Assembly: GCA_018882895.1 (NCBI GenBank)
Contig: VERF01000003.1
Span: forward strand, 854 to 64,853
Reading direction: 5' to 3'
Length of the DNA: 64,000 nucleotides
From: Candidatus Kapaibacterium sp.
GTDB lineage: Bacteria > Bacteroidota > Ignavibacteria > Kapaibacteriales > Kapaibacteriaceae
In this document: in pieces, positions 2,326 to 64,000 of the stretch
How the letters are laid out: each line of letters begins with the position of its first letter
Numbering within the stretch: position 1 is the first letter of the stretch
Notes under the pieces: model-generated
Databases searched by the model: none
The model's input: only the letters and a program-made list of their open reading frames with translations
Told to the model about the DNA's origin: nothing
Translations under genes and position numbers: made by a program

Positions 2326-5300
2326 ATGATGATTTATGTGATGATCTCAGTGGTCACGATTTTCCTAGCATTTACCGATATCCAGGCTCAGACCGCAGCC
2401 CATCTTGTTCCCATCCGGACCTTCGTGACCGGGGACGACACGGTCAAGTGTCGCTTGGCGGCGCTCGACAATAACTTTCAGCCGGTGAATGGGAACCTGG
2501 CAGCGCTTCAGGTGGTCGATGGAGGAGTTACGCCGGCAGTGACCCAAGCTCCTGACCCGATCGGAAACCCCCGAGAACTCTCGCTGGTGGTCGCTGTTGA
2601 TCTGTCGTCATCAATGGAGATTGCGAGTCCAACTACCTCGGGGCTTTCTCCGTTGGCAATAGCAAGCCAGGCCATCGACCGGGCTCGCAATCTCATGATC
2701 CGTTCATTTGACGAACTCGGCCTAGTAGGAATAGGTGCCCGCTCGGAACTGATCTATGCTCTTTCGTCTGACAAACTCGGATTTCCCAAGGCTGTTACAA
2801 GTCTGAAAAGCTCTGGTGGATTCGACCTTCAGCGTGGACTGTTTGACTCACCCACCGGGGCGTTAACGCAACTTCAGAATTCTCGAAACTCGCGGGCGCT
2901 GCTCCTCTTTACTGATGGCAACTCCCGATTTGACCTCAAAAGTGCGCGCTCTCTTGCCAAGACCTTCGGCATCAAGGTTTACGTGATAGGTATTGGCACC
3001 GCTTTGTCATCTGAACTTCGCACTTTGGCCGATTCTTCTGGCGGCGCCTACGTGGAACGCGTCAGCAATGTGGCCGAAGCATCTCGCTGGGCCAGTGGCT
3101 TCGTAGCCGAAGCCAAACAGCTGCGACTCTGGACGCTTTCCTGGGCAAGGCCGAATGCCTGCGACACCATTAGGCAGGTACAGGTAGCCGACACCAGGAC
3201 AAAGCTCAACGTGCAGTATCGTCAGCCCCCTTCAAAGAGGGGCATTCTGCAGACTCGCGATCAGAGCATTGATCTCGGTCTAGTTCCCGCAGGGAATGCG
3301 GCCACCGCCACGGCGGTGTGGACTGCATCGAACACCAAGATCACTGTCACGGCAGTAAGTGCATCCGGAGGTACCGGTTTCGAACTCATTGATTTGCCAA
3401 GTCTGCCCGTCACTGTATCACCTGGCACGTCAATGAGCGTCGGCATCCGTTTCTCGTCGCAATCGACCGATGCCGACTACGCTACGGTGCAGATTCAGAG
3501 TGATGCATGTCAATCCGATGTTGTTCATCTGCGGGCCGGGTCGGTATTCTCCGGTAAGACGGTGCGCCTCGAGCAACCCAATGGTGGCGAGACGTTCTTG
3601 GCTGGACGGGACACTGTCGTCCAATGGACAAATGCCCTACCGCAAGACTTCATGCGGCTTGAAGTGAGCACGAATTCGGGAACGACTTGGAAGACCGTCA
3701 CTGAATCAGCACAGGGTCTGTCATACAAGTGGTCGCCAGGCTTCGGAGTTGGAGACAACTGCCTGATGCGTATCACGGGGACAAACATTGATCAGCGCAG
3801 CATTCTGAGATTACGTGGACAAGAGCAGCCGGTTTACTGTGCAATATTCACTCCGGATGACCAGTACGTGATCACTGGTGGTGACGACGGAACAGTCAGA
3901 ACATGGGACGCCAATACTGGAGAACAAGCACGCATCATTGGGATCCATGGCAACTGGGTTTGGGCTCTTGCCACGATGCCGGGAACATCAAATGTTGCCT
4001 CTGGAAGCCATGACGGGACAGTTCGTGTGTGGGACTATCGAAGCAGTGCACGCATCGCTACTGTCAATGTTGGTTCACGCGTCTGGTCTGTGGCCTTCTC
4101 CCAGGACGGCAAGACGATGTTCGTCGGCACAGAGGGTTCGATCATGACAGTCTCAACCGACACATGGTCGATTGATAAGTTTGTCACCGTTCCGGAGGGG
4201 CCCGTCTATGATGTGCATGCTGCCGCAGGCGCGCCCTTCATCGTTGCCGCCGAGGGATCGAGCGTCGTTTCTCGGTCAGTCAGTGATCTGGCTGTCATTC
4301 GCGAGTTTCGAGATCCAGAACAGGTTGGTAGCGTCTATGCTGTTTCAATGCCGTCAACCAATGACGTCGTCGTCTCTGGAGGTTCGGACTTTGTGATTCG
4401 AAAGTATCGTTACTCTGACGCATCATTGCTGGAAAGCTCGTCGACTGGACTCGGGAGTATTCTTGCTTTGTCATACTCATTAGACAATTCGAAGATACTG
4501 TCGGCAGGGGGCGACGCCACTGCCAAGATTCACAGTGCCGAGAATCTATCCGTGCAAGTCGCGTTGGCCGGACATGACGGCATAGTGTACGGAGCTTCAT
4601 TCTCCTCCAATGATAGTCTTGTGGCGACCGCCTCAACAGACTTCACTACTCGTGTCTGGCCCCTTTCAAAGCTTGGTTCGGTATCGGATCAGAGTGATGG
4701 TGCCTTCTCAATTGCGGGTGGCCAAACTGAACAGTCGACTTTGAGCTTTGGTGATGTTCTCATTGGTACAGGGCGTGATGTCTCATCTCCGGTCCTGCGC
4801 AACACGGGATCGAGTCCGGTCGTGGTTCGGTCGATCCGGCTGCGTTCAGCTGGCCAAGACTCTGATTTTGAAATCAGCCCTCCTACACTTCCATTGCAAC
4901 TCGAAAGCGGGGCGTCGCTCTCTGTGGATGTGGAGTTCATGCCAACAGGCCTCGGCGATCGTAATGCGACTCTCGAGATCACTACAGGTACCGGTATCAA
5001 GCGAATCGAGCTATCGGGTCGCGGTGTAAACCCTGGACTTAGCGTTCGCGAGGTTCTCGATTTTGGCCGCCACATTGCCAATCAGGGGGTGATTGACAGT
5101 AGCATAACGGTGACAGGCATCGGAGATCCGAGTGTTCTGTACGAAGTAACGCTCACTTCAATCGTGGGAGAGCAGTCATCGGTCTTCTCGATCATTGACG
5201 GTGGATCGCCGTTTACACTTCGCGGTGGTGAATCACGAAAGATCTCTGTTCGTTTCGACCCTCGGACATTCGGCCGTTTCTCGGGGAATTTGGTGCTCCA

Positions 5301-6669: not shown

Positions 6670-8669
6670 GATCCTTCACAACTGCAATTCTCGCACTTGG
6701 CCTCAGCTACAGTCTTCTTCTGGCTCAAACAGACGATCGTCCTCGCATCGGACTTGTGGCTCACGGCATTCTCGACCTTCATCACGCATCTTTCGGCCAA
6801 CTGCCTGATGTCGGCAACTGTTGCCCAAGTTTTACCGGTGGCACGGGCAGTGGTCTGCTGTTCGGTGCGTCCTACCTGACTGGTCTTTCGAAGGAATGGC
6901 TGCTAGATGTCCGTGCTGGTTACCAAACCGGCACGGCAGACTTGACTGAACGAGAGTCAAAGCTCATCGTTCAACCAACTGGTCAGTTCGAATCAGCTAC
7001 GATCCGTCACGACCTCTCGGCTTCGTTCAATCGGCTTGCCATCGAGCCCCTTGCCATTTATCGAATCACTCCCACGGTTGGGTTGCGAATGGGTCTGTGG
7101 GGAGGTTTTCAGATGGACGGTACGTTCACTCAGTCCGAAACGCTTGAAACACCATCCAACGTTGTTTTCGAGAATGGCACTCGTACTCGTAATCGGGCCG
7201 AGGGAACGATTGAGCGCATTGCAACGATGAATCTCGGCTTGACGGTCGGGATAGGCGCTGACTTCCCCCTCGATGTTGACCGCATATTCGTGGCAAGCCC
7301 GGAAGTTCTTCTGACCTATGCTCCAACTGCATTGGTGCAGGATTTATCTTGGTCACATACCATGATCCGTGCCGGTGTAGTGATTTCATACTCACCGATC
7401 GACGAGGAAGAGCCAATCTCAGACTTTGAACTTTTCGAGGTAGCACGAACGTCGCTGTTGCGCCCTGCGTCCGAAACCTTACCTGCACGAATGATATCGG
7501 CGACCGTCTCGGGGCTTAACGAAAGCGGCACACCGGTCGATAAGCAGTCGGTTCGGATCGAAGAGTTCACGTCGAATCGTATTCGTCCTCTGCTTCCTTT
7601 TGTGTTTTTCGACGAAGGTTCGTTTACGTTGTCACCACGATATCGTCAGCTTTCTCGCGAGCAGGTTGAGGGCTACTCGCTTGCCAACTTCTACAACCTC
7701 GATGCCATGATTACCTACTATCAGCTTCTGAATGTGGTGGGCAAGCGCATGCAGGAGAGACCGGAAGCCACGGTGACACTCACGGGATGCACGGACTCAA
7801 AGGAGGCCGGCGGTAGTGAGGGACTTGGAACGCGGCGGGCTCAGGTCGTGAAGAATTACCTTGTAGACACGTGGCAGATCTCCCCGTCGCGAATCACCGT
7901 TGAAGGGCGAGAGCTTCCCACAGCTGCGTCAAATGAAGCTGATCTTGACGGGGCTTCGGAGAACCGCCGAGTAGAGATCTCCAGCTCAGACATGTCGGTA
8001 CTTTCGGCCGTTACGTCAAACGACACGATGAGGGTATTCGATCCACCTGGACTGCGTTTTGGGCTATCAGTTTCTGATACTTCCAAGCTTAAGAGCTGGA
8101 CGCTGTTTGTGTCCGAAAATGACCGCATCATCCGGACTTTCCACGGCAGCAAAGCTCCACCTTCTTCAGTTGATTGGCGGATGTCGGAGCAGGCAGCACT
8201 GATCTCGCGCGGTACGCGTAAGCTTGAGTACATGTTGGTGGTGCAGGACTCTTCCAACGACGTGATCCCGTCTGCAAGTGCGACAATACCAGTGACAGAG
8301 CGCACGCTGTCAGACAAAGCCTCAGGTGGAGGAACAGACAAGTCCATTGATCGTTTCTCTCTGATCCTCTTTGGATTTGACCGTTCAGATCTCACCGACG
8401 AGCACCGCCAGCTTGTTGATAAGGTAAAGTCGCGATTGAGTCCAACATCCACTGTTTCGATCGTCGGGTACACTGATCGGACCGGCAGTGAGGACTACAA
8501 TCGAAAACTCAGCGAGCAACGTGCACGTGCAGTCTCCAGCGCACTGGGATTTCAGCGCGCAAGCGTGGCCGGTAATGGTGAGCAACTCCCCTTGTACGAC
8601 AATGACACTCCGGAAGGGCGTTTCTACTCTCGTACGGTCGAGATCATTGTCGAGACGCCGAATCGCTAA
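6666..8669 (+). CDS. outer-membrane protein with N-terminal barrel-like region and two OmpA_C-like domains (paralog of 207-2222)
   Basis: Signal peptide MRSFTTAILALGLSYSLLLAQ. OmpA_C signatures ...GTRRAQVVKNYLV...ENRRVEIS and ...TDRTGSEDYNRKLSEQRARAVSSAL...SRTVEIIVE. ATGA overlap with the upstream gene. Confidence 0.8.
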   Translation: MRSFTTAILALGLSYSLLLAQTDDRPRIGLVAHGILDLHHASFGQLPDVGNCCPSFTGGTGSGLLFGASYLTGLSKEWLLDVRAGYQTGTADLTERESKLIVQPTGQFESATIRHDLSASFNRLAIEPLAIYRITPTVGLRMGLWGGFQMDGTFTQSETLETPSNVVFENGTRTRNRAEGTIERIATMNLGLTVGIGADFPLDVDRIFVASPEVLLTYAPTALVQDLSWSHTMIRAGVVISYSPIDEEEPISDFELFEVARTSLLRPASETLPARMISATVSGLNESGTPVDKQSVRIEEFTSNRIRPLLPFVFFDEGSFTLSPRYRQLSREQVEGYSLANFYNLDAMITYYQLLNVVGKRMQERPEATVTLTGCTDSKEAGGSEGLGTRRAQVVKNYLVDTWQISPSRITVEGRELPTAASNEADLDGASENRRVEISSSDMSVLSAVTSNDTMRVFDPPGLRFGLSVSDTSKLKSWTLFVSENDRIIRTFHGSKAPPSSVDWRMSEQAALISRGTRKLEYMLVVQDSSNDVIPSASATIPVTERTLSDKASGGGTDKSIDRFSLILFGFDRSDLTDEHRQLVDKVKSRLSPTSTVSIVGYTDRTGSEDYNRKLSEQRARAVSSALGFQRASVAGNGEQLPLYDNDTPEGRFYSRTVEIIVETPNR

Positions 8670-9787: not shown

Positions 9788-11730
9788 TTGTACTGATTGC
9801 ATCAGCGATTTCGGCTCTCTCGCAGGGAATCCGCGATAGCCGTGGACGCAACTTTTGGCTGGCGGTGCCGCCAAATGATAACGCGTCGTCGACACCAACA
9901 GATGATTCCTTTGTCTCGCTTCTGGTGGCAACTGATGATGTTGTGACGGACGTAACCGTCCTGGCACGGCAGAGATCCGGAAAGACTGATACCATCCGTG
10001 CCAAGGTTCCGCCGTCGACATTGTGGGAGATTCGCATTGACGATTACGATCTCTATCAACTCCAGGGAATTGAGCGTCTAGGTGGGGCCAGTATTGATGG
10101 CGAACGGCCTAATCCCGCCAGTATCAATGTCTTGACCAGCAACGATGTTTCGCTCTATGCCGTGTTGCGAGCCCGCAGGTCCAGCGATGCGTGGCTTGTG
10201 TTGCCAACGGATGCCTTGTCAACCGACTACATCGTTGCCTCCTACCCTTCCGAAGTATCGTCGACATTAGGTGCGACAATCACATATCCGAGTCAGTTTG
10301 TCGTGGTGGCAACGCAGGATTCTACCAAGGTCGACATTTCGCTGAGTGTTGATAGATCGGATCGTCAAGTCGGCCGAGATCGCTCAGTGATACTGCAACG
10401 CGGTGAGTCATACCTGCTCCAGGCTCGCATTGAGTCCAATCGTCGGGATGATCTCACAGGGTCGAGTATCGCTTCGTCGAAACCTGTTGTCGTCATCGGT
10501 GGCCACCGACGGGCGCAGGTTCCGATCCTTGCTGGATCGGCCTCTCGAGACTGCCTCGTCGAACAGATGCCGGGACTAGAGACTTGGGGTCGACAGATCG
10601 TTGTGCCACCTCTTGTCAAGGCGAGTGATCACTTTCTGTATTCGGTCGATGATGTCTCGATCTGTCGCATCATCGCATCAAAGGATTCGACGCTCGTCAC
10701 GGTGAACTCTCAGCCGGCCTATCTTCTGAACAAAGGAAAGTTCTGGGACCTTCCATTGGACGTTCCACTTGTCATTGATGCCACGAAGCCAATTCTAGCC
10801 ACCATACTTGACAGATCAGCCAATCGGACGGGTGGTCAACGTCTCGGCGATCCATCGATGATGGTGGCACCGCCAACAGAACAGTACCTTCGTTCATACA
10901 TCATTGGGTGCGTCGGACCCAATAGCGCCGGTGGTCAGATCTATTCTGAACATTTCATATCGGTTGTGATACCAACCGTCGCAGTTCCCTCTCTTGAACT
11001 TGATGGAACAACATCATTCACAGCTACGAGCAACACGATTCTTAGCTCGCCATACTCGGTGGTGTCGACAAAGGTGGCATCAGGTGCTCACCGACTGAAG
11101 GCAGACTCTACCTTCGGCGTCTTTGTGTATGGATACGGTGGTGCTGAGTCTTATGGATACACCGGGGGCATGGCCTTTGAGAGACTCAACGATCCGGTGA
11201 TACGATTGCGTGCATTGCGCACCGCAGGAGATCCTGGTCAACGAGATACTATCGCTATCATCCTGGACAGTATCGACACGAGAAATCTCGAGGGTCTTAC
11301 CGGAGTGCGAAACGTGCGATATCGTGTGACGTTTGATGCCTCATCTTTCGTTCCATTCGAGGACGGCATTATCGATACCGGTGCCACGTCACTCAGACTT
11401 GACCTTTCAGCGAATGTGTCAACGCTCTTTCCGGGTGACACGATCGGACTCATCTCAGGCATTCATACACTGGGTCTGACGGATTCATCACAGATCCTGG
11501 TCGACTCGGCTTCGTGGTTCACAGGAAACGGAGAGGCCATCCGAGTAAATACGCGGTACATCCCCGGGGATCTCGTGACGACTTCAGTTTGCCAGACAGA
11601 GGTTGGCAAGCGGCTCTTTGATCCACGTGTGGCAAAGCCCCCTGTCATCAGAGGATACTACGATATACGTGGTCAATACGTCGGCCCAACTCTCGAAGGT
11701 TTGCCCGTGGGCGTGTACTTTCGGCGATGA
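9700..11730 (+). CDS. secreted IgGFc-binding-protein N-terminal-domain-like protein
   Basis: NFWLAVPPNDN..., DLTGSSIASSKPVVVIGGHRRAQVP and SRDCLVEQMPGLETWG resemble the bacterial IgGFc_binding domain family. The hydrophobic stretch FWIIVVLIASAISALSQG looks like a signal sequence. The only in-frame ATGs are 9700 and 9718, so it overlaps the GT4 gene by 70-88 nt. The C-terminal ...LPVGVYFRR is T9SS-CTD-like. Confidence 0.6.
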   Translation: MGPVVLMGRFGIGHRITLSRGHIRQFWIIVVLIASAISALSQGIRDSRGRNFWLAVPPNDNASSTPTDDSFVSLLVATDDVVTDVTVLARQRSGKTDTIRAKVPPSTLWEIRIDDYDLYQLQGIERLGGASIDGERPNPASINVLTSNDVSLYAVLRARRSSDAWLVLPTDALSTDYIVASYPSEVSSTLGATITYPSQFVVVATQDSTKVDISLSVDRSDRQVGRDRSVILQRGESYLLQARIESNRRDDLTGSSIASSKPVVVIGGHRRAQVPILAGSASRDCLVEQMPGLETWGRQIVVPPLVKASDHFLYSVDDVSICRIIASKDSTLVTVNSQPAYLLNKGKFWDLPLDVPLVIDATKPILATILDRSANRTGGQRLGDPSMMVAPPTEQYLRSYIIGCVGPNSAGGQIYSEHFISVVIPTVAVPSLELDGTTSFTATSNTILSSPYSVVSTKVASGAHRLKADSTFGVFVYGYGGAESYGYTGGMAFERLNDPVIRLRALRTAGDPGQRDTIAIILDSIDTRNLEGLTGVRNVRYRVTFDASSFVPFEDGIIDTGATSLRLDLSANVSTLFPGDTIGLISGIHTLGLTDSSQILVDSASWFTGNGEAIRVNTRYIPGDLVTTSVCQTEVGKRLFDPRVAKPPVIRGYYDIRGQYVGPTLEGLPVGVYFRR

Positions 11731-17155: not shown

Positions 17156-20100
17156 TCAATCGCGGATGATCACCGGGAGAACAGAACGCGTAAAGCCCGA
17201 TGAAACTTCGATCATGACCAATCCGCGAGGAAGTGTGCTGACGTCCAGTGTGAACGTCTGCTGGCCAGGCGGTGCCATCCCGAGTGACTTGGTAGAGAGT
17301 ATGCTTCCGCGAGCATCAAGGAATCGCACATTCAGATCTAGTGAGGTGGGAAGATCAGCAGCGATCATCACGACGTCACTTGCAGGTTGTGGTCCGAGAA
17401 GTCGGAGGCCAATTCCACTGATCTCTGAGTCATCAACTGAAGTGCCGGCGTTGACCTTGACGACGACGCTTTGTGATGTGATGCTGCCACACTGGCCGCT
17501 TACCTCGCAGGCATATGAGCCTTCGTCGGCCTTCGAAGCCGCAGGTACGGTGTAAGAGGCTGACGATGCACCAACGATGGTCATTCCATCACGTTTCCAT
17601 TGATACGTCAGAGCCGGACCCGTTGCAACAACAGTAAGAGTCACGGGCTTTCCTTCATCGACCGTTTGTGGCGTCGGTTGCGTTGTGATCGTCGGACGTG
17701 GCTGGATTGTGACTGTTGCCGGTTGTGAGGTGACAGCTGGAGGACACTCTCCTGATATGACGCAGTCATATTTCCCGGCCGCACCGGTCGACGCGGTGTC
17801 GGCGGTAAAGGTGGCCGTATTTGCTCCGGTGATGTTGACGCCATCCTTGCGCCACTGGTACTTGGCCGCGACACTCGACGAGGCAACTGACAGCGTCAGC
17901 TTCGCCCCCTGGCAGACAGATGTCGATGCAGGCTGACGTGTGATCGACGGAGGGGCATCAATCATGAACGGCGTGGTCAGAATACTGACGTGACCATTTA
18001 CGGTTGAAATTCGCAGCACATACGAACCTGCCACAACGCTCGGCGGTATCTTCCACAAGTAGGAACGTCCTCCGGTACTGCGGATAACGTCGGCCCACTT
18101 TCCGGATCCTTCCACCGAGTATTCGATTCTGAACTTTGTCGTGTCTGCTACCCCGGACGCATCCCACGCAAGGGGCTTGCTTGAACCGATACAATAGACT
18201 TCACCACCCTTTGGTGTGACGATCTCGAGACTTCCCGGGGTGTATTTCGTCAGATACCCGTCGGAAGCTCCGGAGTAAGAGGCATACGCCGAGTCGTGCG
18301 TGCGAAGGTTCGCTGATGTTGAGTTTGCAGCAAGAAGTGCATCTCCACGGAAGTCCAGAATGGCATCCACCACCGTGTCAGATTCAAGACCTGTTAGCAG
18401 TGTGGAGACAGTGACAGCTCCGAAATTCATCATCGTATAGAAGCCGTCGGTCAGTCCGAACCGCTCTGCTGTCGCACCAAACCCTTCCGTTGGGAAGTCA
18501 CTGGAAGTGGTCGTTCCCGAGATAAGAAAGGCTGACGTGCGGCCACTCGGACGGACATTTCGCACCAGATCGTCGCCGCTGCCTCCGATATAGGTACACG
18601 AAATGACCTGCGTGCCATTATCAGCTACTTGGGCAACGAAACCATCAAGGCGTCCCGGCGCTTGGGAAAACACGGATGCCGACGTCGGCAGATTGTTCGA
18701 TCTGGTGTTTCCTCCGATGAAGATCTTCCCATCGGAATCAAGCCACATGGCCACTGTTTCTTCATCTGCGCTGCCTCCGAAGAGCGTCGCGAAGGTGATA
18801 CCGTCGGTCTGAGAAAAGGTCAGACCGCTACTCATCTTGACAACGAAAACGTCACTGGTTCCGCCGTTATATGTTCGGTCGTAAGGAAGCCGCCCCGTCC
18901 ACGTAGCATCTGCAATTGGAACGGCCTCGAAGCTGGTCGACGTGGTTGTGCCCGTCAGGACAACAAAACCTCGACTGTCCACGGCAACGCTTGTGAATGC
19001 ATCGTTGCCTTCACGTCCGTAGTAGCGTGACTTTTGCATCGTTCCGGTGGCCGAATAGATCGCAATGAATCCATCCTGCTGCCCAAGATTGCTGTTTCCG
19101 CTTGAGATGCCTACGGTTCGAGTCTTGGTATCGCGTCCGTCCTGGTACTGCCAAACAAGGTTTGCCGTTGCGGTCATGTTGTTCGGGAAATTCGCCGTCG
19201 AGGTCGTCGATCCCGCCAAGTAGATGAACCCCGATTCGTCTACGGCGATATCGCGCGGAATGTCATCGCGGTTGCCGCCATGATAGAAGCCTGTAAGCAG
19301 TTTTGTCAAGGTAGAATCAAGCTTTGCGACATACGCATCGGTCGCCGCCTTGATAGTCTTGAACTGTGCTGCCGGAGTTGTCGGCATGTCGTTGGATGTG
19401 GTCTCGATAGCGAGATAGACATTCTGCTGTCCATCGATCGTCATCGATCGAAGGCGGTCTCCGGCCGAACCGCCGATGAACGTCATCGCAAGTATCCGTT
19501 GAAACTTCGCGTCGCAAATCAGAACGAATGCATCATTATCACCTTTGATCGACTTCGAGTACCCGCCTACACCTGTCGGAACCGTCATCTGAGCAGTTGT
19601 GCCGCTCACGAGTAGATTGCCACTCGGCATGACTTCGATGGCCGTGATGGCATCGAACGCGCCTCCTCCGATGTACGAACCATAGACGAAGGAACCTGCC
19701 TTGGTTGCATCCATGGTATTGACGCCCGATCGATCAGAACGAACGATATGAACGCTTTCAGCCAGATGTTCCTGGCCCGTTTGGATCGATCGGACCAGAC
19801 GTCCATCTTCTCCTACGGAGAGGTTTACAATAGCGCCAGAAGGAAACCTAAAGCGAATTGGCTGGTCTCTGAATGCAGCTGTAGAGAAGGAATTCCGCGA
19901 CCCTCCCGAGAAGTAGGACACAGTTGTGCCACCTACAGGAGAATCAGGATCCAACATCACAGCGCCGGCAAAATGCTCTGAGAAAACGGTCCCCGTACGA
20001 ACGCCATCGCGCACGGTGTACTCATCGCAAATGACTCCGCTGGTTGTCACCCATACATCTGCACCGCGCGTGCGCGTAGCAGCTATGATGTGCGATGGCC

Positions 20101-56909: not shown

Positions 56910-56983
56910 GCCGGAGTAGCTCAGGTGGTTAGAGCAACGGAATCATAATCCGTGTGTCGGGGGTTCAAGTCCCTCCTCCGGTA
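56910..56983 (+). tRNA. tRNA with anticodon CAT (elongator Met or lysidine-modified Ile2; not initiator-like)
   Basis: GCCGGAG/TA/GCTC-AGGTGGTTA-GAGC/A/ACGGA-ATCATAA-TCCGT/GTGTC/GGGGG-TTCAAGT-CCCTC/CTCCGGT/A. G1-U72 wobble. No GGG/CCC anticodon stem. CCA not encoded. Confidence 0.85.
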
Positions 56984-56990
56984 CTTTCAA

Positions 56991-57018
56991 CAGCGAAGCC
57001 CAATGCTTCGCTGTTTTT
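56991..57018 (+). terminator. rho-independent terminator after the tRNA
   Basis: CAGCGAAGC-CCAAT-GCTTCGCTG followed by TTTTT. Confidence 0.75.
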
Positions 57019-57197
57019 GTTTGTACAGCCGTCAAGCCTTCTCGAAAGCCGCCAGCGCAGAAGGCGCGCCACACCCAATTTCTATTTTCTTCCCCGTTGC
57101 ACCCACCTGGCGGTAACCTGGCGTGATCGCACAGGTCTTAGTCTTACATTACGGCGTAACTACTGTGTATTTCCACTCATTACTAGAGTTCACAGCC

Positions 57198-57371
57198 ATG
57201 AAGATTATTCCAACACTCGTTGTCGCTCTTGCAGGATTTCTTCTGAGTTCTCAGTCAGCCTTGTCACAATGTGTTAGTCCACCGAATCAGTGTGGCAATC
57301 AGACGCCAATTCAGTGTGAATGCGTTGGTACGGAATACGAGTTTAAGGTCTGCCATGCTGGGCGTTCATAG
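57198..57371 (+). CDS. 57-aa secreted Cys-rich peptide (cassette A, part 1)
   Basis: Signal peptide MKIIPTLVVALAGFLLSSQSALSQ, then CVSPPNQCGNQTPIQCECVGTEYEFKVCHAGRS*. It aligns by eye to the N-terminal part of the cassette-B protein (63418 minus strand). Confidence 0.5.
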   Translation: MKIIPTLVVALAGFLLSSQSALSQCVSPPNQCGNQTPIQCECVGTEYEFKVCHAGRS

Positions 57372-57382
57372 CGAACGTCTGG

Positions 57383-57775
57383 ATGTGCACTCAACAGGCA
57401 GTGCCGCCAACGCCTCTGGACAATCCCTGTACTGTTCCTCCCAACGAATGCGCATTCCCGATAAACTCAATCACGTGGGTGAAAAAAATCTGCGTTCCTC
57501 AGGAGCTGAAGGATCAGAATCTGACGGCAGTCTATCAGGCCATCATCCGAGGCACTGACTTATGCTGTTACAACTTCATTGGCGCGACAATTCCTGCCTG
57601 CAATGCTGGGGCACGATGCTCCGATCCTACAAACCCAGGTATTTACTGTCACGTGTTAGCGCTACCAAAGTGTCTATCAAAGAACTTTAGTACAGGATGT
57701 TACACTGCGTGTGACAACGGTGGAAACTGTGCAAATCACTGCATTCTTGGAGGTGGAAAATGCTACTCAACGTGA
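57383..57775 (+). CDS. 130-aa Cys-rich protein without its own signal peptide (cassette A, part 2)
   Basis: 19 Cys in 130 aa. CTQQAVPPTPLDNPC...WVKKIC...CYTACDNGGNC. In the -1 frame relative to 57198-57371. No recognisable family. Confidence 0.5.
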   Translation: MCTQQAVPPTPLDNPCTVPPNECAFPINSITWVKKICVPQELKDQNLTAVYQAIIRGTDLCCYNFIGATIPACNAGARCSDPTNPGIYCHVLALPKCLSKNFSTGCYTACDNGGNCANHCILGGGKCYST

Positions 57776-60207
57776 AGTACTATATCACTTGCCTTTTGGC
57801 GTGCGTTTACTTCCTAAACGCCGACCACGTCTGTGCTCAGGGCCGTGAACCGGACCTTTGGTGGAGCGGTATAGCGCCGAGGACGGTGTTTCATCATCCT
57901 TTATGGGGATATGTTGCACTCTTCGAATTCAATGGCCTCTATAGCGGTCAATCGCTGTCCGATATGAAGCCGGTACTCCCGGAAGCAAACTGGGATCGAA
58001 TCAAGGCTTTGCCGAACATGGCCATTCTTAGCAGTGGCGTTTGGGTGGTAGCCGGAGGAACACCTCCACGGGAGACACCGGGCAGTATTTTTCGCTTCAC
58101 ACCGGGAAAGACACCCGAACTCCTCACCGGTGCCGACCTGGATTCATCAATTATACTTGGGGGCGGCATCGACTATGGCGTGATTTGTCGGTCCTTTGAG
58201 CCAGATGGTTTTGTCCTCAGTCGCCTGTATTCGACGAATAGTGGTGCCAGCTGGCACTACGGCCAGTGGCCAGACTCGGTGGAATCAGGATCGTGGGGCT
58301 TTGTCAATCGCCTGCCTGATCTTGGATTCGTAGCCTTATACGAGCGAGATACGTCCTGGCATCGATTGGAGTTGCCTTCGAAACGATGGCTGAAAACAAA
58401 CCAGATTCCAGGGTCCTGCAGGGAGCTCACCCCGTTACGGAATGGCTCTGTCGTAGCAGTTATGGAGACGAGTCGTGACGTCTACACTGGAGTCGCGGTA
58501 CGACCAAGTGGCTCTCAAGAGTGGTCCTTTCATCGGGATGTGCGCATACGCAACATGAAGGATTCCCTGCGTCCGATCTGGCGTTTAAGACAGGAACGAG
58601 AGCCAGTTTTTCACGTGATCAATGACTCACTCGCAGCTATGGCAATGGACAGCGGGATCATCGTTTTTTCTGATGGTCGGGATGTGTGGTCAGTGAAAAT
58701 GGATATCCCGAAACAACTGCGATATGTTGGCAAGGTTAGGACATCTGTCAGTGTTGTAGGCGAAACGATCTACATGAGTTACACCGATGGCATGAGCCCT
58801 TCACACGTGACCTATCACGTTACGTCGGGCAAGACGAAGATTCTTTCACGACTCCCACCGATGCAAATGGCCAACAACATGATCATTGGCTATCACTCGA
58901 ACAGCCTGCGCATCTATGAACCTGAGGAAGATCTACTGCGTCCAATTCTCAGAGCGCGCGGTGCCGGAGACGAACCGATTTTCCCATTTTCATTTTCGTC
59001 TCTCGTGCCTCACGATGGGGCGATATACACACACAATCAAAACGGGGAGGTTTTGTCTGTTAACATCCGAGATAGGACCGCACAGTTTGCACCGTGGCTT
59101 CCTACGGAATTTCCGTCAACGTCCCGGGCGCAGCATGAGATTGGCACCCAACCATGTGTGTCGACTCCTGCCGGGCTCATGCTGATCGGAAGACGTGGAC
59201 TTCGCCGCTTGAATGGTCGGGTAGCAACGAACCTACGACCCGATAGCACTTCCTTTGTCTATGCTACCGACGATAAGACATTACTCAGCGGATACAGGAG
59301 CCTGTTCATGTCGGTCGACTCCGGCGGAACGTGGAGTAGTGTACCCGGTCCGTTCGACAGCGCGAGTGTAAAGCCAGCGATCTCGTCATGTATTGTCAAC
59401 GGGCAGGCGATGATCGTTGCCTACCGTGGCTATGACGTGGAAAGTGATGGCGTTCCAGACGGTTTCGTCCCGGGTGGACTGTTTCGGTCTGTCAATGGAG
59501 GGTCTACTTGGGAGTCATTGCCGCTGCCTGTGCCGGCGCGCTGGGTCGAGTCACTCCATAGAACCGAGTCCGGAGAATTGTGGTGCTGGGCCATCGATCA
59601 ATATCTCGAGTGGTCGGGAACGAGTTCGAAGTTTCGCTACAATACCGGTTCTCTTCTTCGCTCGACTGATGACGGCAAGTCGTGGCAGGTTGTGCACTCA
59701 GAGGTTGGTTCTCAGACACTCAGAGATCTAGCCCCGTGGAATATCAGCTCACGTAGCGGGCAGGTCCTTGTCAATACGGACGCGCAGTTGTTGCTGACGG
59801 CTGATGGTGGCCGCACATGGAAGACGTTTGACGATATTCCTCTCGGCATGCCAGTCAACGGATCGCTGATCGATGATGCCGGACAGATATGGGCTGCGAC
59901 GAGCAAGGGAATCTATATTCTCAACGCAACGACAAGTGTCAATACTGAGTTGCTGAACAGTGCTTCGTCGATGGATCCATACGTTTGGCCAAACCCATCA
60001 GATGGCTCATTCACGATAAAGTGGTCTGGTTATCAGCAGGGCAGCGTTCCAGCGGTGATCGACGTTGTCGACAACCTTGGCCGGAGCATCACATATTCCA
60101 GCAGTCAAAACAGCATCGCGCTGCCTAATGCGTCTGCTGGTGTGTATTACCTGCGGTGGCGCGCAGGCTCCTCTGCCGGAGCGATTCCAGTGATGGTTCG
60201 CAAGTAG
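57760..60207 (+). CDS. Asp-box (BNR) beta-propeller protein with T9SS C-terminal domain (cassette A)
   Basis: GGAGGT 6 nt before the ATG. Signal peptide ...CLLACVYFLNADHVCAQ. Asp-boxes STNSGASW, SVDSGGTW, SVNGGSTW, STDDGKSW and TADGGRTW. CTD VWPNPSDGSFTI...GVYYLRW... Confidence 0.8.
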   Translation: MLLNVKYYITCLLACVYFLNADHVCAQGREPDLWWSGIAPRTVFHHPLWGYVALFEFNGLYSGQSLSDMKPVLPEANWDRIKALPNMAILSSGVWVVAGGTPPRETPGSIFRFTPGKTPELLTGADLDSSIILGGGIDYGVICRSFEPDGFVLSRLYSTNSGASWHYGQWPDSVESGSWGFVNRLPDLGFVALYERDTSWHRLELPSKRWLKTNQIPGSCRELTPLRNGSVVAVMETSRDVYTGVAVRPSGSQEWSFHRDVRIRNMKDSLRPIWRLRQEREPVFHVINDSLAAMAMDSGIIVFSDGRDVWSVKMDIPKQLRYVGKVRTSVSVVGETIYMSYTDGMSPSHVTYHVTSGKTKILSRLPPMQMANNMIIGYHSNSLRIYEPEEDLLRPILRARGAGDEPIFPFSFSSLVPHDGAIYTHNQNGEVLSVNIRDRTAQFAPWLPTEFPSTSRAQHEIGTQPCVSTPAGLMLIGRRGLRRLNGRVATNLRPDSTSFVYATDDKTLLSGYRSLFMSVDSGGTWSSVPGPFDSASVKPAISSCIVNGQAMIVAYRGYDVESDGVPDGFVPGGLFRSVNGGSTWESLPLPVPARWVESLHRTESGELWCWAIDQYLEWSGTSSKFRYNTGSLLRSTDDGKSWQVVHSEVGSQTLRDLAPWNISSRSGQVLVNTDAQLLLTADGGRTWKTFDDIPLGMPVNGSLIDDAGQIWAATSKGIYILNATTSVNTELLNSASSMDPYVWPNPSDGSFTIKWSGYQQGSVPAVIDVVDNLGRSITYSSSQNSIALPNASAGVYYLRWRAGSSAGAIPVMVRK

Positions 60208-60208
60208 C

Positions 60209-60340
60209 ATCAGGATGACTCAGCATCACCTCAGCTCGTTCACCGCCCGCTCTTCGGCTGGTATGCGGATTCTTGTCAGGATGAGATAGTTGAGTGCCGT
60301 GGCGATGATGGCTGTGAGGTATGCTCCGACAGAAAGGTGG
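60209..60340. repeat. direct repeat copy 1 (132 bp; 127/132 identical to 63560-63691)
   Basis: Manual alignment at a constant offset of 3351 nt. Mismatches at 60250, 60285, 60332, 60337 and 60338. Weaker similarity continues to about 60355. Confidence 0.9.
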
Positions 60341-60342
60341 AA
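60226..60342 (-). pseudogene. remnant of the last 38 codons of the ICMT-family methyltransferase gene
   Basis: In-frame reading FHLSVGAYLTAIIATALNYLILTRIRIPAEERAVNELR*, versus the intact ...FVGAYLTAIIATALNYFILTRIRIPAEDRAVNELR* at 63577. An upstream in-frame TGA at 60343-60345 closes the frame. Confidence 0.8.
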
Positions 60343-60383
60343 TCACGAAACAGTGTTGCTCGGGTTGATGCAGACGTTCCATC

Positions 60384-62981
60384 TCACCTCTGCACCATTA
60401 CCTTACACCACTCACTACCACCTGCATGTGACATGGCTATAAAATAGATGCCGGGTACGAGGTGTTCGACGGAAACATGCAGCTCCTGACGCGCTGGTGT
60501 TTGGGTGATCGAACTTGACAGATCAGATATCTGCTGACCATAGATGTTTAGAAGGGTTAGTTTCGGCTTACTCTTTGCGAGATGCGCATTGTTGATGCGA
60601 ATGGTGATCTGTCCATTTGCTGGAGTCGGGTAGGCCCACACCGATGTAAAAATGCCCTGGTCTTTTTCATCATCAACCGAGCTTGTAGTTGAGGTAAACG
60701 TATAGAGTCCTCTTTCCGTGGCCGCGTAGATCGTGCCGTTCTTGTCTGTATCAATGTCCTGTATGAAGTGGAAGTACAGTGGGGTTTCACCGAGGGTGTG
60801 CCACGTCAGCCCTGCATCGGTGCTCTCAAGCACGCCATCGTCGATGCTTGCGTACAGAACTCGTGTCTCTGACGTCGCGAGCAGTTCGCGGCGTCCCCAA
60901 AATGCTGGTCTTGATCGGGGCTCTTCATACACCATTGTCCAAGTCTGTCCTGCATCGGACGAACGCATGATAGTCGCACCTGTCTGGTTGTAACGATCCG
61001 TTTCATTATTGCCTGTATTGTTGGTATCGGCAAGAACCTGGCCCACCGCACAAAGCACAGTACTCTCGTCGAGCTTTGTGATGTACCAGATATACGACTG
61101 CCTTCCCATACCAACATCGCTTCGGGTCCAAGTATCACCATTATCGTCCGAGCGGTACAAACCTCCTGGACGCAGTATGGTCGTATCGGTGTCATCATCA
61201 CGATACAAGCCGCGGAAGCCTAGCAGCAGCGTGGAGGGCGACAAGCGCAAGATCTGCGATGTCTCCAATATCCTACCCTTGGAGTCGCGCGGCAGGCCCA
61301 CAGACTTAGCTGACGTCCACGTGTCTGCTCTATTCGAACTGAAATACACGCTGTCGGATACAGCAATCCACTCAGATGCGCTTGAGATTGAAAACGCTGA
61401 TGCCCTCACCGAACCAGCCCCAATGGGTTTTCGAATTTTTGTGTTAGGACCTTCTACGCTGATATGAGTTGAGTGAATGTATGTCGTGTCACCTATCAGT
61501 TGAATGGCAGGCCCCCCACGATCCACATGTTGTGGGTAGATGACGTTGAATTCATAGAACTGCGGGAAACCAAAAACGTGTCGCTGATACGTAGCTACTT
61601 CGGAATGATTCAAGCGAAAGAGAGACTGATGATCGCCCGAGATGATATGCGCTCCGGCATCGCCGGCCGATACCCGCTCTACACTCATAAAATGTGTGCC
61701 GAGTAATTTGAACTTCGATACCTCGAACAGGTCGGATGGTGCCGAAGGTAGTTGCCAGCTCTTACCGTTGTCTAAACTTCGATACAGACCTTTCGGTCCT
61801 AACCCAATGATAGTCAAGGAGTCCAACCGAATAACGGAACTCAGCGATGGCGCCAATGTGGTTAGTGTATCAATCGAACCTATATCGGTTGGAAGTTTGC
61901 ACACCAATCCGTCGTTAGCAATGAGTATATTGCCAGCACGATCCGTGTGGAAGGCTTCCCCCGCTGCGACATCGTTTAACAAACCTACATTACCTCGGTA
62001 ATACCAGTCAGCACCTCCGTTCGGCGTGGAAACAACGTCACCCGTGGACATAGCTACCGTGATGATGTCCGATTGCTGGCGCATCAGAAGTCCATTAAGC
62101 TCTTGGAATCTTCCTCGTAGAACCTTGCTAGAATTCACAAACACAAGACTATCAATCTCAACCCACGACGCTCCCTTATCTGTAGAGCGTGCAAGTACGC
62201 CGAACTTTAGTCCATTTGGCTGCTTTCTCTCAACCGAAGCGACAATTGTAGCTGAGTCGAAACAGCGATATGCAATGTGCCTGCCTGGCAGTGTAACGAC
62301 GTGAATACTTGACGTGATGGCGTCGTACTCGATAAAAACGCTATCACATGCTACAGAGAACACGCCCTTCCTTATCTCGAACAACGGTTCTGACAGATTC
62401 AAACCAAAAGATACAGGGGGAATCACAGTAGAATCCCAATCTCTTCCAAAGTTCTTTGAAGAATACAGATCTCTAAAGGTTGCGCGGAGTCCCACCAGGA
62501 CAACCATGGAATCAGACACTCCTACCCTCGGAGAAAGAGGGAGAACATTTTCAGATCCCAACGGCTTAAGCTCCCGCCAATTGTCGTCATTACGGTCATA
62601 CGCGAATATCCGATACTCGAAATTGGCGGTCTTGTCTTCGAAATGAAAGAGAACGTTGCAACCATTAGCAATAAGTTGCGTCCTTGGCCTATGATCTTGA
62701 AGGTTTTGCACGGGCATGTGGTGCCATGTGCCACCAGAATCCGTGCTACGCCATATACGTTCACCTGAAACTGCCCACAATTCCTTTGTGCACGTGTCAA
62801 TGACAATGCGGCGGGGCATACCTGAAACTCTTGAGGTATTGACGTAGGAGTACCAAGCCCGAAAGTCACGTTTCCATTCCTGAGCACGAAGGGGCGCCCC
62901 CTGCGTACACAACGCAACCAGCAATAGTATGGAGGCGCGTACTGTTAGAGTAAATCTACAGGAGACATGTGTGTTCATCAT
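60384..62981 (-). CDS. Asp-box (BNR) beta-propeller protein with T9SS C-terminal domain (cassette B)
   Basis: ATG-ATG at 62981/62978 gives MMNTHVSCRFTLTVRASILLLVALCTQGAPLRAQ (the ORF-track start 63014 is TTG). About 9 Asp-boxes (STDSGGTW, STDKGASW, SLDNGKSW, SDDNGDTW, SSDAGQTW, STDAGLTW...). CTD YPTPANGQITI...GIYFIAM... Confidence 0.8.
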   Translation of the reverse strand: MMNTHVSCRFTLTVRASILLLVALCTQGAPLRAQEWKRDFRAWYSYVNTSRVSGMPRRIVIDTCTKELWAVSGERIWRSTDSGGTWHHMPVQNLQDHRPRTQLIANGCNVLFHFEDKTANFEYRIFAYDRNDDNWRELKPLGSENVLPLSPRVGVSDSMVVLVGLRATFRDLYSSKNFGRDWDSTVIPPVSFGLNLSEPLFEIRKGVFSVACDSVFIEYDAITSSIHVVTLPGRHIAYRCFDSATIVASVERKQPNGLKFGVLARSTDKGASWVEIDSLVFVNSSKVLRGRFQELNGLLMRQQSDIITVAMSTGDVVSTPNGGADWYYRGNVGLLNDVAAGEAFHTDRAGNILIANDGLVCKLPTDIGSIDTLTTLAPSLSSVIRLDSLTIIGLGPKGLYRSLDNGKSWQLPSAPSDLFEVSKFKLLGTHFMSVERVSAGDAGAHIISGDHQSLFRLNHSEVATYQRHVFGFPQFYEFNVIYPQHVDRGGPAIQLIGDTTYIHSTHISVEGPNTKIRKPIGAGSVRASAFSISSASEWIAVSDSVYFSSNRADTWTSAKSVGLPRDSKGRILETSQILRLSPSTLLLGFRGLYRDDDTDTTILRPGGLYRSDDNGDTWTRSDVGMGRQSYIWYITKLDESTVLCAVGQVLADTNNTGNNETDRYNQTGATIMRSSDAGQTWTMVYEEPRSRPAFWGRRELLATSETRVLYASIDDGVLESTDAGLTWHTLGETPLYFHFIQDIDTDKNGTIYAATERGLYTFTSTTSSVDDEKDQGIFTSVWAYPTPANGQITIRINNAHLAKSKPKLTLLNIYGQQISDLSSSITQTPARQELHVSVEHLVPGIYFIAMSHAGGSEWCKVMVQR

Positions 62982-63418
62982 AAACTCTCTCGTTGGTGAC
63001 AACCGGACAGGCAAACAGTAACTCGCCTGCTCATTTCATGTACATCAAGGACAGACTTCACAGTCCGCATTGGGATCGAAAACACATCCATTGTCGGTAC
63101 ACTGGGACTCACACGTGCTGTAGGTGGCAGCGTTGTCCCAGATGGACATATCTTCTTTATCACGGTGTACTTATCTATCCCAGTATTTGTAGCACATGGT
63201 AACCCCAACTGCGGGGGGCTATATGTTTTGGTACAGTAGGTAACGTCAACATTGTAAGTAACTCCCATACTACAGAATGTTACGTTGATCGTTGCCTCTG
63301 CGCTACCACCCGGGCAGTCGGTACAGCCAGGTGTCTCGTTGGCAGATGCTCTCGTTGTCGCCCAAAGCAACATCAATAAACACAACCCTAATGCAAGCCG
63401 CGAAAAACAGTATCTCAT
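62978..63418 (-). CDS. secreted Cys-rich protein (cassette B), probably frameshifted near 63120-63150
   Basis: ATG at 63418: MRYCFSRLALGLCLLMLLWATTRASA, then NETPGCTDCPGG...FCSMGVTYNVDVTYCTKTYSPPQLGLPC...VIKKICPSG. After this point the -1 frame (to the stop at 63045) is the one that is Cys-rich and resembles the cassette-A tail. Confidence 0.5.
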   Translation of the reverse strand: MRYCFSRLALGLCLLMLLWATTRASANETPGCTDCPGGSAEATINVTFCSMGVTYNVDVTYCTKTYSPPQLGLPCATNTGIDKYTVIKKICPSGTTLPPTARVSPSVPTMDVFSIPMRTVKSVLDVHEMSRRVTVCLSGCHQRESL

Positions 63419-63490
63419 GATGTATCTGTCTGAATAATGAGGAAAAAAGTCACCGTGGAATATGGGGATTGATTCGTTATCGAACAATAT

Positions 63491-63524
63491 GAAAACTCCG
63501 GTCATTTTGCCCTTCGTACCGGAG
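63491..63524 (-). terminator. weak terminator-like hairpin downstream of the methyltransferase gene
   Basis: Minus strand: CTCCGGT-(15-nt loop)-ACCGGAG then TTTTC. Short stem and large loop. Confidence 0.3.
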
Positions 63525-63559
63525 CATGTTGACCCCCAATCGTCATTGGTCCTTCACAG

Positions 63560-63691
63560 ATCAGGATGACTCAGCATCACCTCAGCTCGTTCACCGCCCG
63601 GTCTTCGGCTGGTATGCGGATTCTTGTCAGGATGAAATAGTTGAGTGCCGTGGCGATGATGGCTGTGAGGTATGCTCCGACAAAAAGAGGG
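63560..63691. repeat. direct repeat copy 2 (3' end of the intact methyltransferase gene plus 17 nt downstream)
   Basis: See copy 1. Covers the stop codon at 63577-63579 and the last ~38 codons. Confidence 0.9.
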
Positions 63692-64000
63692 ATGACGAAG
63701 AACTCAACGAGCACGACAATGTAGTTCGGGTGCGAAACGTACCTGAAGGGTCCTGCCGTGACTCTTTCTGCGCCGGGCACCACGATAATGCGCGTGTTCC
63801 ACGCAGGACCCAGTGTGGAGATCGTCCAGTACCGCATGACCTGGGCTAAAGAGATCACCCCGACAAAGAACCACCACGGCTGCTGTATCTCGCCGCCGCG
63901 CAGGATGTGTTCGGTGATCCAGCCGATGAACCACGACACGTGCAATGCAACGATCAAAGGGTAGTGGCCGGCCCCGTACTCGCGACCGCCGCGAGCAAAG
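63577..64000 (-). CDS. isoprenylcysteine carboxyl methyltransferase (ICMT)-family membrane protein, 5' end beyond window
   Basis: ...GPFRYVSHPNYIVVLVEFFVIPL... is the ICMT/PEMT-type motif. The frame stays open to nt 64000 (…FARGGREYGAGHYPLIVALHV), and the ORF-track start 63957 is only an internal TTG. Confidence 0.75.
   Translation of the reverse strand, partial: FARGGREYGAGHYPLIVALHVSWFIGWITEHILRGGEIQQPWWFFVGVISLAQVMRYWTISTLGPAWNTRIIVVPGAERVTAGPFRYVSHPNYIVVLVEFFVIPLFVGAYLTAIIATALNYFILTRIRIPAEDRAVNELR

Follow-up and report, generated by a model that had tools for sequence, protein, structure and literature searches.

The stretch of DNA analyzed here (the window; 64,000 nt, contig C28:854–64853 of G000, a 2.57-Mb metagenome-assembled genome (MAG) of Candidatus Kapaibacterium sp. 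in 131 contigs) holds near its right end a direct repeat that duplicates the 3′-end of an ICMT-family methyltransferase gene and brackets cassette B, a module of two genes encoding a small Cys-rich secreted protein and a propeller protein exported by the type IX secretion system (T9SS). The repeat is real and of single origin, the site is empty or only partly filled in relatives, and the surrounding island is evidently, from its identity profiles, exchanged between species. The best reading of the repeat, which we hold with modest confidence, is an event like homology-facilitated illegitimate recombination (HFIR), in which a homologous joint on one side and an illegitimate joint on the other pushed the old gene end aside.

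The duplicated ICMT gene end

The left copy (R_left, 60209..60341) and the right copy (R_right, 63560..63692), both in the minus-strand orientation of the ICMT gene, align gap-free at a constant offset of 3351 nt with an identity of 128/133, which agrees with the repeat of 132 nt and five mismatches described in the initial annotation and lengthens it by one nucleotide. The mismatches lie at 60250, 60285, 60332, 60337 and 60338, three of the five being clustered at the inner edge (60332–60338). The clean repeat block therefore covers 60209–60331, with 2 mismatches in 123 nt, and is followed by ~18 nt of imperfect similarity, which in the left copy ends at 60342 and can be followed weakly to 60349. 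An assembly-wide search of the 2.57 Mb of G000 returned these two copies only, and a chance origin of a repeat of such length and identity in 64 kb is excluded.

R_right is the functional end of the gene: it contains the last 38 ICMT codons, the stop codon (63577–63579) and then 17 nt, in agreement with the initial annotation. R_left starts 1 nt past the stop codon (60205–60207) of propeller A, the T9SS propeller of a neighbouring cassette A, and is a non-coding orphan. Translated in the ICMT frame it reads ...SVGAYLTAIIATALNYLILTRIRIPAEERAVNELR (also given as ...ALNYLILTRIRIPAEERAVNELR), has no start codon and is closed by an upstream TGA, so that the initial annotation was also right in calling it an in-frame remnant with F/L and D/E changes. 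The outer boundary of the repeat falls at 60208/60209 on the left and at 63559/63560 on the right, 17 nt beyond the ICMT stop. Both internal differences between the copies are private to the functional R_right and are non-synonymous (L to F and E to D), R_left agreeing here with the ICMT ends of the genus members G020 and G014 and of the metagenome contig L051. Over the clean 123-nt block, R_left differs from the G020 ICMT end at one position, a substitution private to G020 (identity in the 60200 window is 100%), and from that of G014 at two.

The 17-mer at the start of the repeat is not a recurring site in G000, where only both copies and one match with three mismatches were found. No gene-end duplications were seen around other G000 cassettes, the other medium-sized direct repeats being paralogue arrays or a palindrome like the repetitive extragenic palindromic (REP) elements. 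This dispersed REP-like palindrome, which also resembles a miniature inverted-repeat transposable element, is ~100 nt long (CCCAGGGCTTCAGCCCTGGG ... GGGGCATGCCCC ...) and occurs at C100:6481–6600 and 10453–10551 and also on C62, C99, C102, C104 and other contigs. On C100, two direct palindrome copies bracket a module of a small protein and a 1007-aa propeller, an arrangement unrelated to the ICMT repeat.

The junctions in independent assemblies

Two strain variants wrongly joined through the shared 133-nt stretch in a metagenome bin would give a false repeat, and G000 is a 131-contig MAG in which several contig pairs are 90–98% identical over 1–6 kb (C57/C10, C66/C67, C88/C89), a sign of strain mixture; these pairs indicate that strain variants were assembled together in the bin, even though it scores low for contamination. 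The same layout and junctions, however, were found in metagenome contigs of other origin. L051, a 353-kb contig of the Joint Genome Institute (JGI), carries cassette A, the left copy, cassette B, the right copy and ICMT in the same order as G000, and L050, a second metagenome contig, covers the left part of the locus. L141, L142 and L143, JGI contigs from other samples, read from tRNA-Met through a 36-nt filler and an 18-nt relic of propeller A into the left copy and cassette B; among these three the right copy is reached in L142 only, and their relic junction is that of G014. In addition, the Logan contigs X1, X2, X4, X11 and X12, from lake and freshwater metagenomes, span both inner junctions at ~97% identity, and the Logan contigs together come from at least four studies.

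The junction between R_left and cassette B, ...GCTCCGACAGAAAGGTGGAATCACGAAAyAGTGTTGC, is identical in G000, L050, L051, L141 and L143, and in L142 its position is unchanged and the edge is an ICMT-like variant. Because it is common to six independent assemblies, the junction is real and of single origin; moreover, the left junction sequence is not obtainable by joining both simple variants. Misassembly is thus effectively refuted, and we give it next to no weight.

Occupancy of the site among relatives

The locus was compared in 16 other members of the genus having the ICMT gene. In 12 of these, tRNA-Met directly faces ICMT at a distance of a few tens to ~150 nt, and this indicates that the ancestral state of the site is empty. 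The cassette-free members are G001, G011, G014, G015, G023, G024, G004, G006, G010, G021, G002, G016 and G019, the total of 12 varying with the counting of G014, which has no cassette and retains the last 18 nt of the propeller-A open reading frame (ORF) before its single ICMT end. Cassette A alone is present in G020 and G003. In G013, cassette A is followed by a spacer of unrelated sequence and then by a 175-nt relic of a 3′-end like that of propeller B, 85% identical to 60384–60557. The full layout of cassette A, repeat, cassette B and repeat is found in G000 and L051, while L142 has a cassette-A relic, repeat, cassette B and repeat, and L141 and L143 show the relic-repeat-B left part on contigs that end before the second repeat.

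Base for base at both flanks, G020 equals G000 minus cassette B and one repeat. This is the empty site that the initial annotation had proposed to look for, with cassette A abutting ICMT, and the locus as a whole is polymorphic rather than arranged alike in all relatives. The block of cassette B plus one repeat is present or absent both on a cassette-A background (G000 and L051 versus G020) and on a cassette-A-relic background (L141–L143 versus G014), and for the block to vary on two backgrounds, either it must have been deleted between the repeats more than once or recombination must have reassorted it. The 36-nt filler (GAGCAACTGCACGTCATTCCTCATGACTTAGTGACGGCAAC and variants) that separates the tRNA-Met flank from the 18-nt relic, in place of cassette A, in G014 (L025), L141, L142 and L143 had no match, including in the G000 and L051 loci.

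Mosaic homologous exchange across the island

Sliding identity between G000 and G020 is about 80–85% over the flank with the etf and nuclease genes and about 65% over the type III polyketide synthase (PKS) gene on the other side. Within the locus it is 98–100% at 57750–58950, 64–80% at 59650–60100 and 99–100% at 60150–60341, and from 63560 to ~63900 it is 95–98%, dropping to ~65% by 64000. The tract from 63560 to ~63900 is also 95–98% identical to G014 and to L051, and identity then falls to ~65%. Judged from these alignments, the drop at ~63900 is a recombination breakpoint in the middle of ICMT, and a recurrent one. Compared with L051, the island of G000 (57195–63900) is 94–100% identical and the flanks ~80%, while L051 and G020 share 79% over the left flank and 96.7% over the right flank (ICMT and PKS). 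The island and its parts are evidently, on this pattern, exchanged between species through homologous recombination.

Mosaicism extends into the propeller genes. The last third of propeller A in G000 (59400–60110) is private, being 65–79% identical to every other allele, and the first (5′) half of propeller B in L141 is 63–79% identical (window 61490–62759) with the rest at 95–100%. These mosaics suggest diversifying recombination in the T9SS cargo proteins. The type III PKS gene beside ICMT (64000 onward; L003 8946–9992) shows a related pattern: its nucleotide identity between G000 and G020 is ~65% against a backbone of ~80–85%, and L051 and G020 share it at 96.7% while their other flank is 21% different, and the PKS operon, too, seems from these values to be exchanged between species.

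The inner boundary and an IS66 remnant

Past ...GCTCCGACA, R_left reads GAAAGGTGGAATCACGAA where ICMT reads AAAAGAGGGATGACGAA, over ~18 nt that are roughly 70% similar (60332–60349). The inner boundary of the repeat is a degenerate, imperfect microhomology without a sharp core. In L142 the left copy carries the ICMT version of this inner edge, with similarity there to 60349, and given this ICMT-like edge the original duplication may have measured 141 nt.

What lies on the other side of the junction was indicated by G013. Between its propeller A and its propeller-B relic, at 7062–7165 of L026 (G013:C16), is a previously unnoticed relic (GHLEIDNNRMENAIRP) with two in-frame stops, whose translation ...VCL*DYLVAYP*IGHLEIDNNRMENAIRPFGA matches PF03050 (DDE_Tnp_IS66) with E=2.9e-5 and 24 bits against a cut-off of 23.1. 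The initial annotation had stated that the insert carries only the two cassette-B genes and no integrase. This was borne out, with the qualification that a trace of a mobile element does exist, in the form of this IS66 relic beside the 3′-end of cassette B in G013. In G000, the spacer from R_left to the propeller-B stop occupies 60342..60383, and its segment 60356–60374 aligns to L026:7150–7168, directly after the IS66 relic (p=0.003). Since the inner edge lies in sequence homologous to the end of the G013 relic, the junction would have fused the 3′ part of ICMT with what was left of a decayed IS66 copy beyond propeller B, and by this alignment the G000 spacer is probably the tail of that IS66 transposase remnant. 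Decayed IS66 copies with the same motif are also present elsewhere in G000, on C86 (about 3300–4600) and C90 (about 18330–18480).

The G013 spacer showed no significant similarity to the repeat (p=0.33) or to the ICMT end of G013 itself (p=0.53), as would be sought in a decayed left copy. A resemblance by eye of the G000 stretch just left of R_right to sequence behind ICMT in G003 proved not significant in a comparison with the G003 spacer, and homology there was not taken up as an argument. Cassette B was not found near an IS66 copy in G008, the genome with the closest homologue of propeller B. The duplication, at 124–141 nt, is too long for a target-site duplication left by a transposon (2–15 bp; that of IS66 is 8 bp), and inverted repeats were not found at the ends of the insert.

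A proposed route

We read the gap between tRNA-Met and the convergent ICMT gene as a cassette hotspot of one freshwater Candidatus Kapaibacterium-like clade. It is ancestrally empty, and the members hold between none and two modules, each pairing a T9SS propeller with a small Cys-rich secreted protein. The repeat would be the scar of one ancient joining of two versions of the locus, one with cassette A beside the ICMT end, and the other with cassette B beside ICMT and a decaying IS66 copy beyond B. A homologous crossover would have occurred in the ICMT body, or in cassette A and the tRNA flank. The illegitimate joint would have fused a point ~124–141 nt within the 3′ part of ICMT with the IS66 remnant that lay behind propeller B, using a short stretch of imperfect microhomology. 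As the outcome, one ICMT end would remain on the gene and the other would be displaced as an orphan across cassette B. Either of two directions would give the same product: the ICMT body could have anchored the entry of cassette B with an ICMT end into an A-type chromosome, or cassette A or the tRNA flank could have anchored that of cassette A with an ICMT end into a B-type chromosome. Afterwards, the 6.7-kb island would have moved between species via ordinary homologous recombination, its two copies would exchange sequence by gene conversion, and recombination of repeat with repeat would excise cassette B precisely, giving a G020- or G014-like product.

The features of HFIR found at the locus are a homologous anchor (63560–~63900), an opposite joint at imperfect microhomology, and a junction formed one time. 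Of the explanations offered in the initial annotation, the one that fits best is a recombination-mediated cassette insertion. That the copies convert one another is indicated by L142, in which both copies share a private T found in no other aligned copy and the left copy has the ICMT-type edge. Homologues of ComEC and DprA are present in G000 and provide weak evidence for DNA uptake, such genes being widespread. The repeat with its single origin, the mosaic tracts, the IS66 relic of G013, the lack of recombinases and the empty or part-filled sites are shown by the sequences; the HFIR-type mechanism, any assignment of donor and recipient, and the loss or original absence of cassette B in G020 and G014 are inferred from them.

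Several points weigh against this route. A pre-event haplotype (intact cassette A, IS66, cassette B and ICMT, without R_left) was not found among the sequences compared, so that the direction from donor to recipient and the exact sequence before the junction are deduced. The scheme presupposes a haplotype in which 18 nt separated cassette A from the ICMT stop, and if the G020 form instead arose by repeat-by-repeat deletion, an illegitimate origin has to be assumed for the outer junction (60208/60209) as well. The link to IS66 is indirect, running through G013 and ~20 nt of sequence, and natural transformation is unproven in this uncultured organism. The orphan copy is also cleaner than an old displaced end might be: it has no private substitutions in G000, where it equals the consensus of the relatives' live ICMT ends, against seven in 124 nt in L051, and this requires gene conversion or recent import in G000. 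Finally, the Logan contig X2 (X3 being the same data) runs from 63432–63559 into 60209–60994, as in a circle or a tandem. Logan contigs are k-mer assemblies (k=31) that are unable to settle circle versus chromosome, and because the contigs in X4 and X11 break at the repeat and the X4 repeat unitig has double depth, the X2 contig is probably an assembler path through the collapsed repeat.

Weighing of the alternatives

The HFIR-like route was weighed against three further origins of the repeat and one view of its present role. In a Campbell-type insertion, which we regard as unlikely, a circle carrying cassette B and a copy of the ICMT end would have entered the chromosomal ICMT end by a single RecA-dependent crossover without any integrase, the circle having come from another chromosome by excision between repeats or at the same microhomology, and the reverse reaction would yield the forms without cassette B. 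This would produce the exact geometry observed, would account for G020 and G014 as the occupied forms minus cassette B and one repeat as well as for the variability of this block on two left backgrounds (cassette A and its relic), and the X2/X3 contig shows the junction expected of a circle. However, X2 is most simply an assembler path at k=31, non-replicating circles would need uptake and a homology of 124 nt, and the first joining of the repeat to cassette B is left unexplained, so that an illegitimate joint is still required. A related view, to which we give only a slender chance, regards the structure as an integrase-free plug-in, in which cassette B would loop out via the repeats and re-enter any Kapaibacterium ICMT end; it would explain both the variability of the block on two backgrounds and the circle-like contig. 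The orphan copy lies antisense to ICMT in the propeller-A 3′ untranslated region, and on the plug-in view it could tie expression of the cassette to that of ICMT.

Templated patch repair, which we consider rather improbable, starts from a haplotype of cassette A, spacer with IS66 relic, cassette B and ICMT, in which a break in the decaying IS66 would have been fixed by microhomology-mediated template switching, copying 124–141 nt of the ICMT end 3.3 kb away. Both junctions would stem from one intrachromosomal event, no prior haplotype with cassette A directly abutting ICMT would be required, and the G020 and G014 forms would follow by later deletion between the repeats. In G013 the place of the 124-nt copy is indeed taken by ~125 nt of unrelated spacer and IS66 relic, and there are short matches at the ends, GGATGACT standing both just past the propeller-A stop of G013 and at the start of the repeat, and CGACAA/GGA at the inner edge. 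The 8-mer match alone, though, is not significant (p=0.33), the match in length is possibly a coincidence, and to our knowledge templated insertions of such size are poorly documented in bacteria. The initial annotation had likened the repeats to the attL/attR pair of an integrating element and had suggested a decayed or satellite island. Such an island, resembling a cis-mobilizable element (CIME), would have used an integrase, acting in cis and since lost or acting in trans, to recombine an attP like the ICMT 3′-end with attB and so supply a replacement end. Direct repeats at a gene 3′-end, a distal orphan, an insert GC of ~49% versus ~57–58%, and a nearby tRNA are classic island features, and a clean empty site exists. 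Against this, ORF searches with Pfam and NCBIfam found no recombinase in the insert, only the genes for the Cys-rich protein and the T9SS propeller, and the inserts of L050, L051 and L141–L143 have the same two-gene content without a recombinase, making none in any of six assemblies. In the whole genome, PF00589 matched two genes only, XerD (TIGR02225, 340.8 bits) and XerC (TIGR02224, 306.1 bits), and PF00239 (resolvase/serine recombinase) had no match in this MAG, which is scored 100% complete, although novel recombinase types could escape such a search. Nor does any of the 16 genus loci carry an integrase-bearing element at the site. With the inner boundary degenerate and placed within an IS66 relic, the junction of single origin, and the spread of the island explained by the homologous tracts that flank it and by ordinary homologous exchange around them, neither an att-like pair nor a decayed island finds support, and we consider this origin very unlikely.

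Gene content of the locus

From the left, the gene order is etfB, etfA, a bifunctional nuclease gene, tRNA-Met and a terminator hairpin, followed by cassette A (+), R_left, the 43-nt spacer, cassette B (−), R_right and ICMT. The tRNA-Met gene (CAT; 56910..56984, +), identified with ARAGORN, forms the left border of the cassette hotspot, and the terminator hairpin behind it (56989..57015, +) is kept in all relatives. GC content is about 49–50% in the islet versus about 57–58% in the genome. The ICMT gene (170 aa; 63577..64000 in the window and to 64089 beyond, −; PF04140, E=5.6e-26) is the last of an operon of acyl-CoA ligase, nitroreductase, type III PKS and ICMT.

Both propellers are intact in G000 and both small partner genes are damaged. 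Propeller A (815 aa; 57760..60207, +) combines a BNR/sortilin-like region with a T9SS C-terminal sorting domain (PF15902, PF02012, PF18962). Its small Cys-rich secreted partner (57198..57775, +), which has no Pfam family, is broken in G000, having lost 4 nt near 57362 and 122 nt near 57745 relative to the intact L051 ORF (~245 aa); the Logan contigs X1 and X2 retain the four bases deleted near 57362. Propeller B (876 aa; 60384..63014, −) is likewise assigned by Pfam to the BNR/sortilin-like type with a T9SS sorting domain and is 23% identical to propeller A in the C-terminal part. Its closest homologue in a genome, at another locus of G008, has 74% amino-acid identity, and copies at 95–98% nucleotide identity occur in lake metagenomes. 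The cassette-B small Cys-rich secreted-protein gene (62978..63505, −) is truncated in G000 by an out-of-frame 263-nt deletion at 63118/63120, in the stretch 63045–63149, relative to the intact Cys-rich ORF of L051. At this point several Logan contigs have loose ends or run on unlike the window, and the exact-match look-up with small protein B returned one 1.1-kb contig only.

Significance and comparison with known systems

The locus offers a natural example, from an uncultured freshwater lineage, of a cassette added at a gene end without a dedicated recombinase, in which the duplicated gene tail then gives a foothold for subsequent loss, for gene conversion and for transfer from species to species. 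For annotators, it follows that an integrative element should not be called from att-like repeats alone, even where these sit at the 3′-end of a gene beside a tRNA. It also reveals intense mosaic recombination in T9SS propellers and the Cys-rich proteins that accompany them, among lake Kapaibacterium species only ~80% identical in nucleotide sequence, which suggests, as far as allele comparisons can tell, that diversifying pressure acts on these proteins.

For the arrays of type VI secretion system (T6SS) effector-immunity, Rhs and contact-dependent inhibition (CDI) genes, it has been suggested that HFIR is the source of displaced 3′-ends and orphan genes (PMC5361080). As there, a conserved part of a gene would serve here as homologous anchor while the far end is joined illegitimately through microhomology, the former 3′-end comes to lie downstream as an unexpressed orphan, and the locus is a swap site between strains and species. 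The anchor here, in contrast, is a small-molecule methyltransferase that ends a type III PKS operon and stands outside the cassette's own system, and the cargo consists of a Cys-rich protein and a T9SS propeller rather than toxin-immunity pairs. A single orphan is present instead of an array, it has been kept nearly identical to the live copy, and HFIR in this uncultured lineage is read from sequence only.

With CIMEs and other integrative elements, the locus shares direct repeats of the target 3′-end, a replacement end that keeps the gene intact, a distal orphan, an empty site and an adjoining tRNA. It differs from them in that neither a cis- nor a trans-acting integrase was found, in the missing sharp core, in a junction that was made one time, and in spreading via homologous tracts. 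Capsule and O-antigen type loci are integration hotspots between conserved core genes and are exchanged by flanking homology. The variable occupancy between the same core genes, the high-identity tracts ending in the flanking genes and the mosaic alleles of surface or secreted proteins are similar here, whereas this hotspot is small, with zero to two two-gene cassettes, and its duplicated flank fragment can mediate the loss of one cassette. The kind of event is already known; the lineage and the cargo are new, and current understanding is not overturned.

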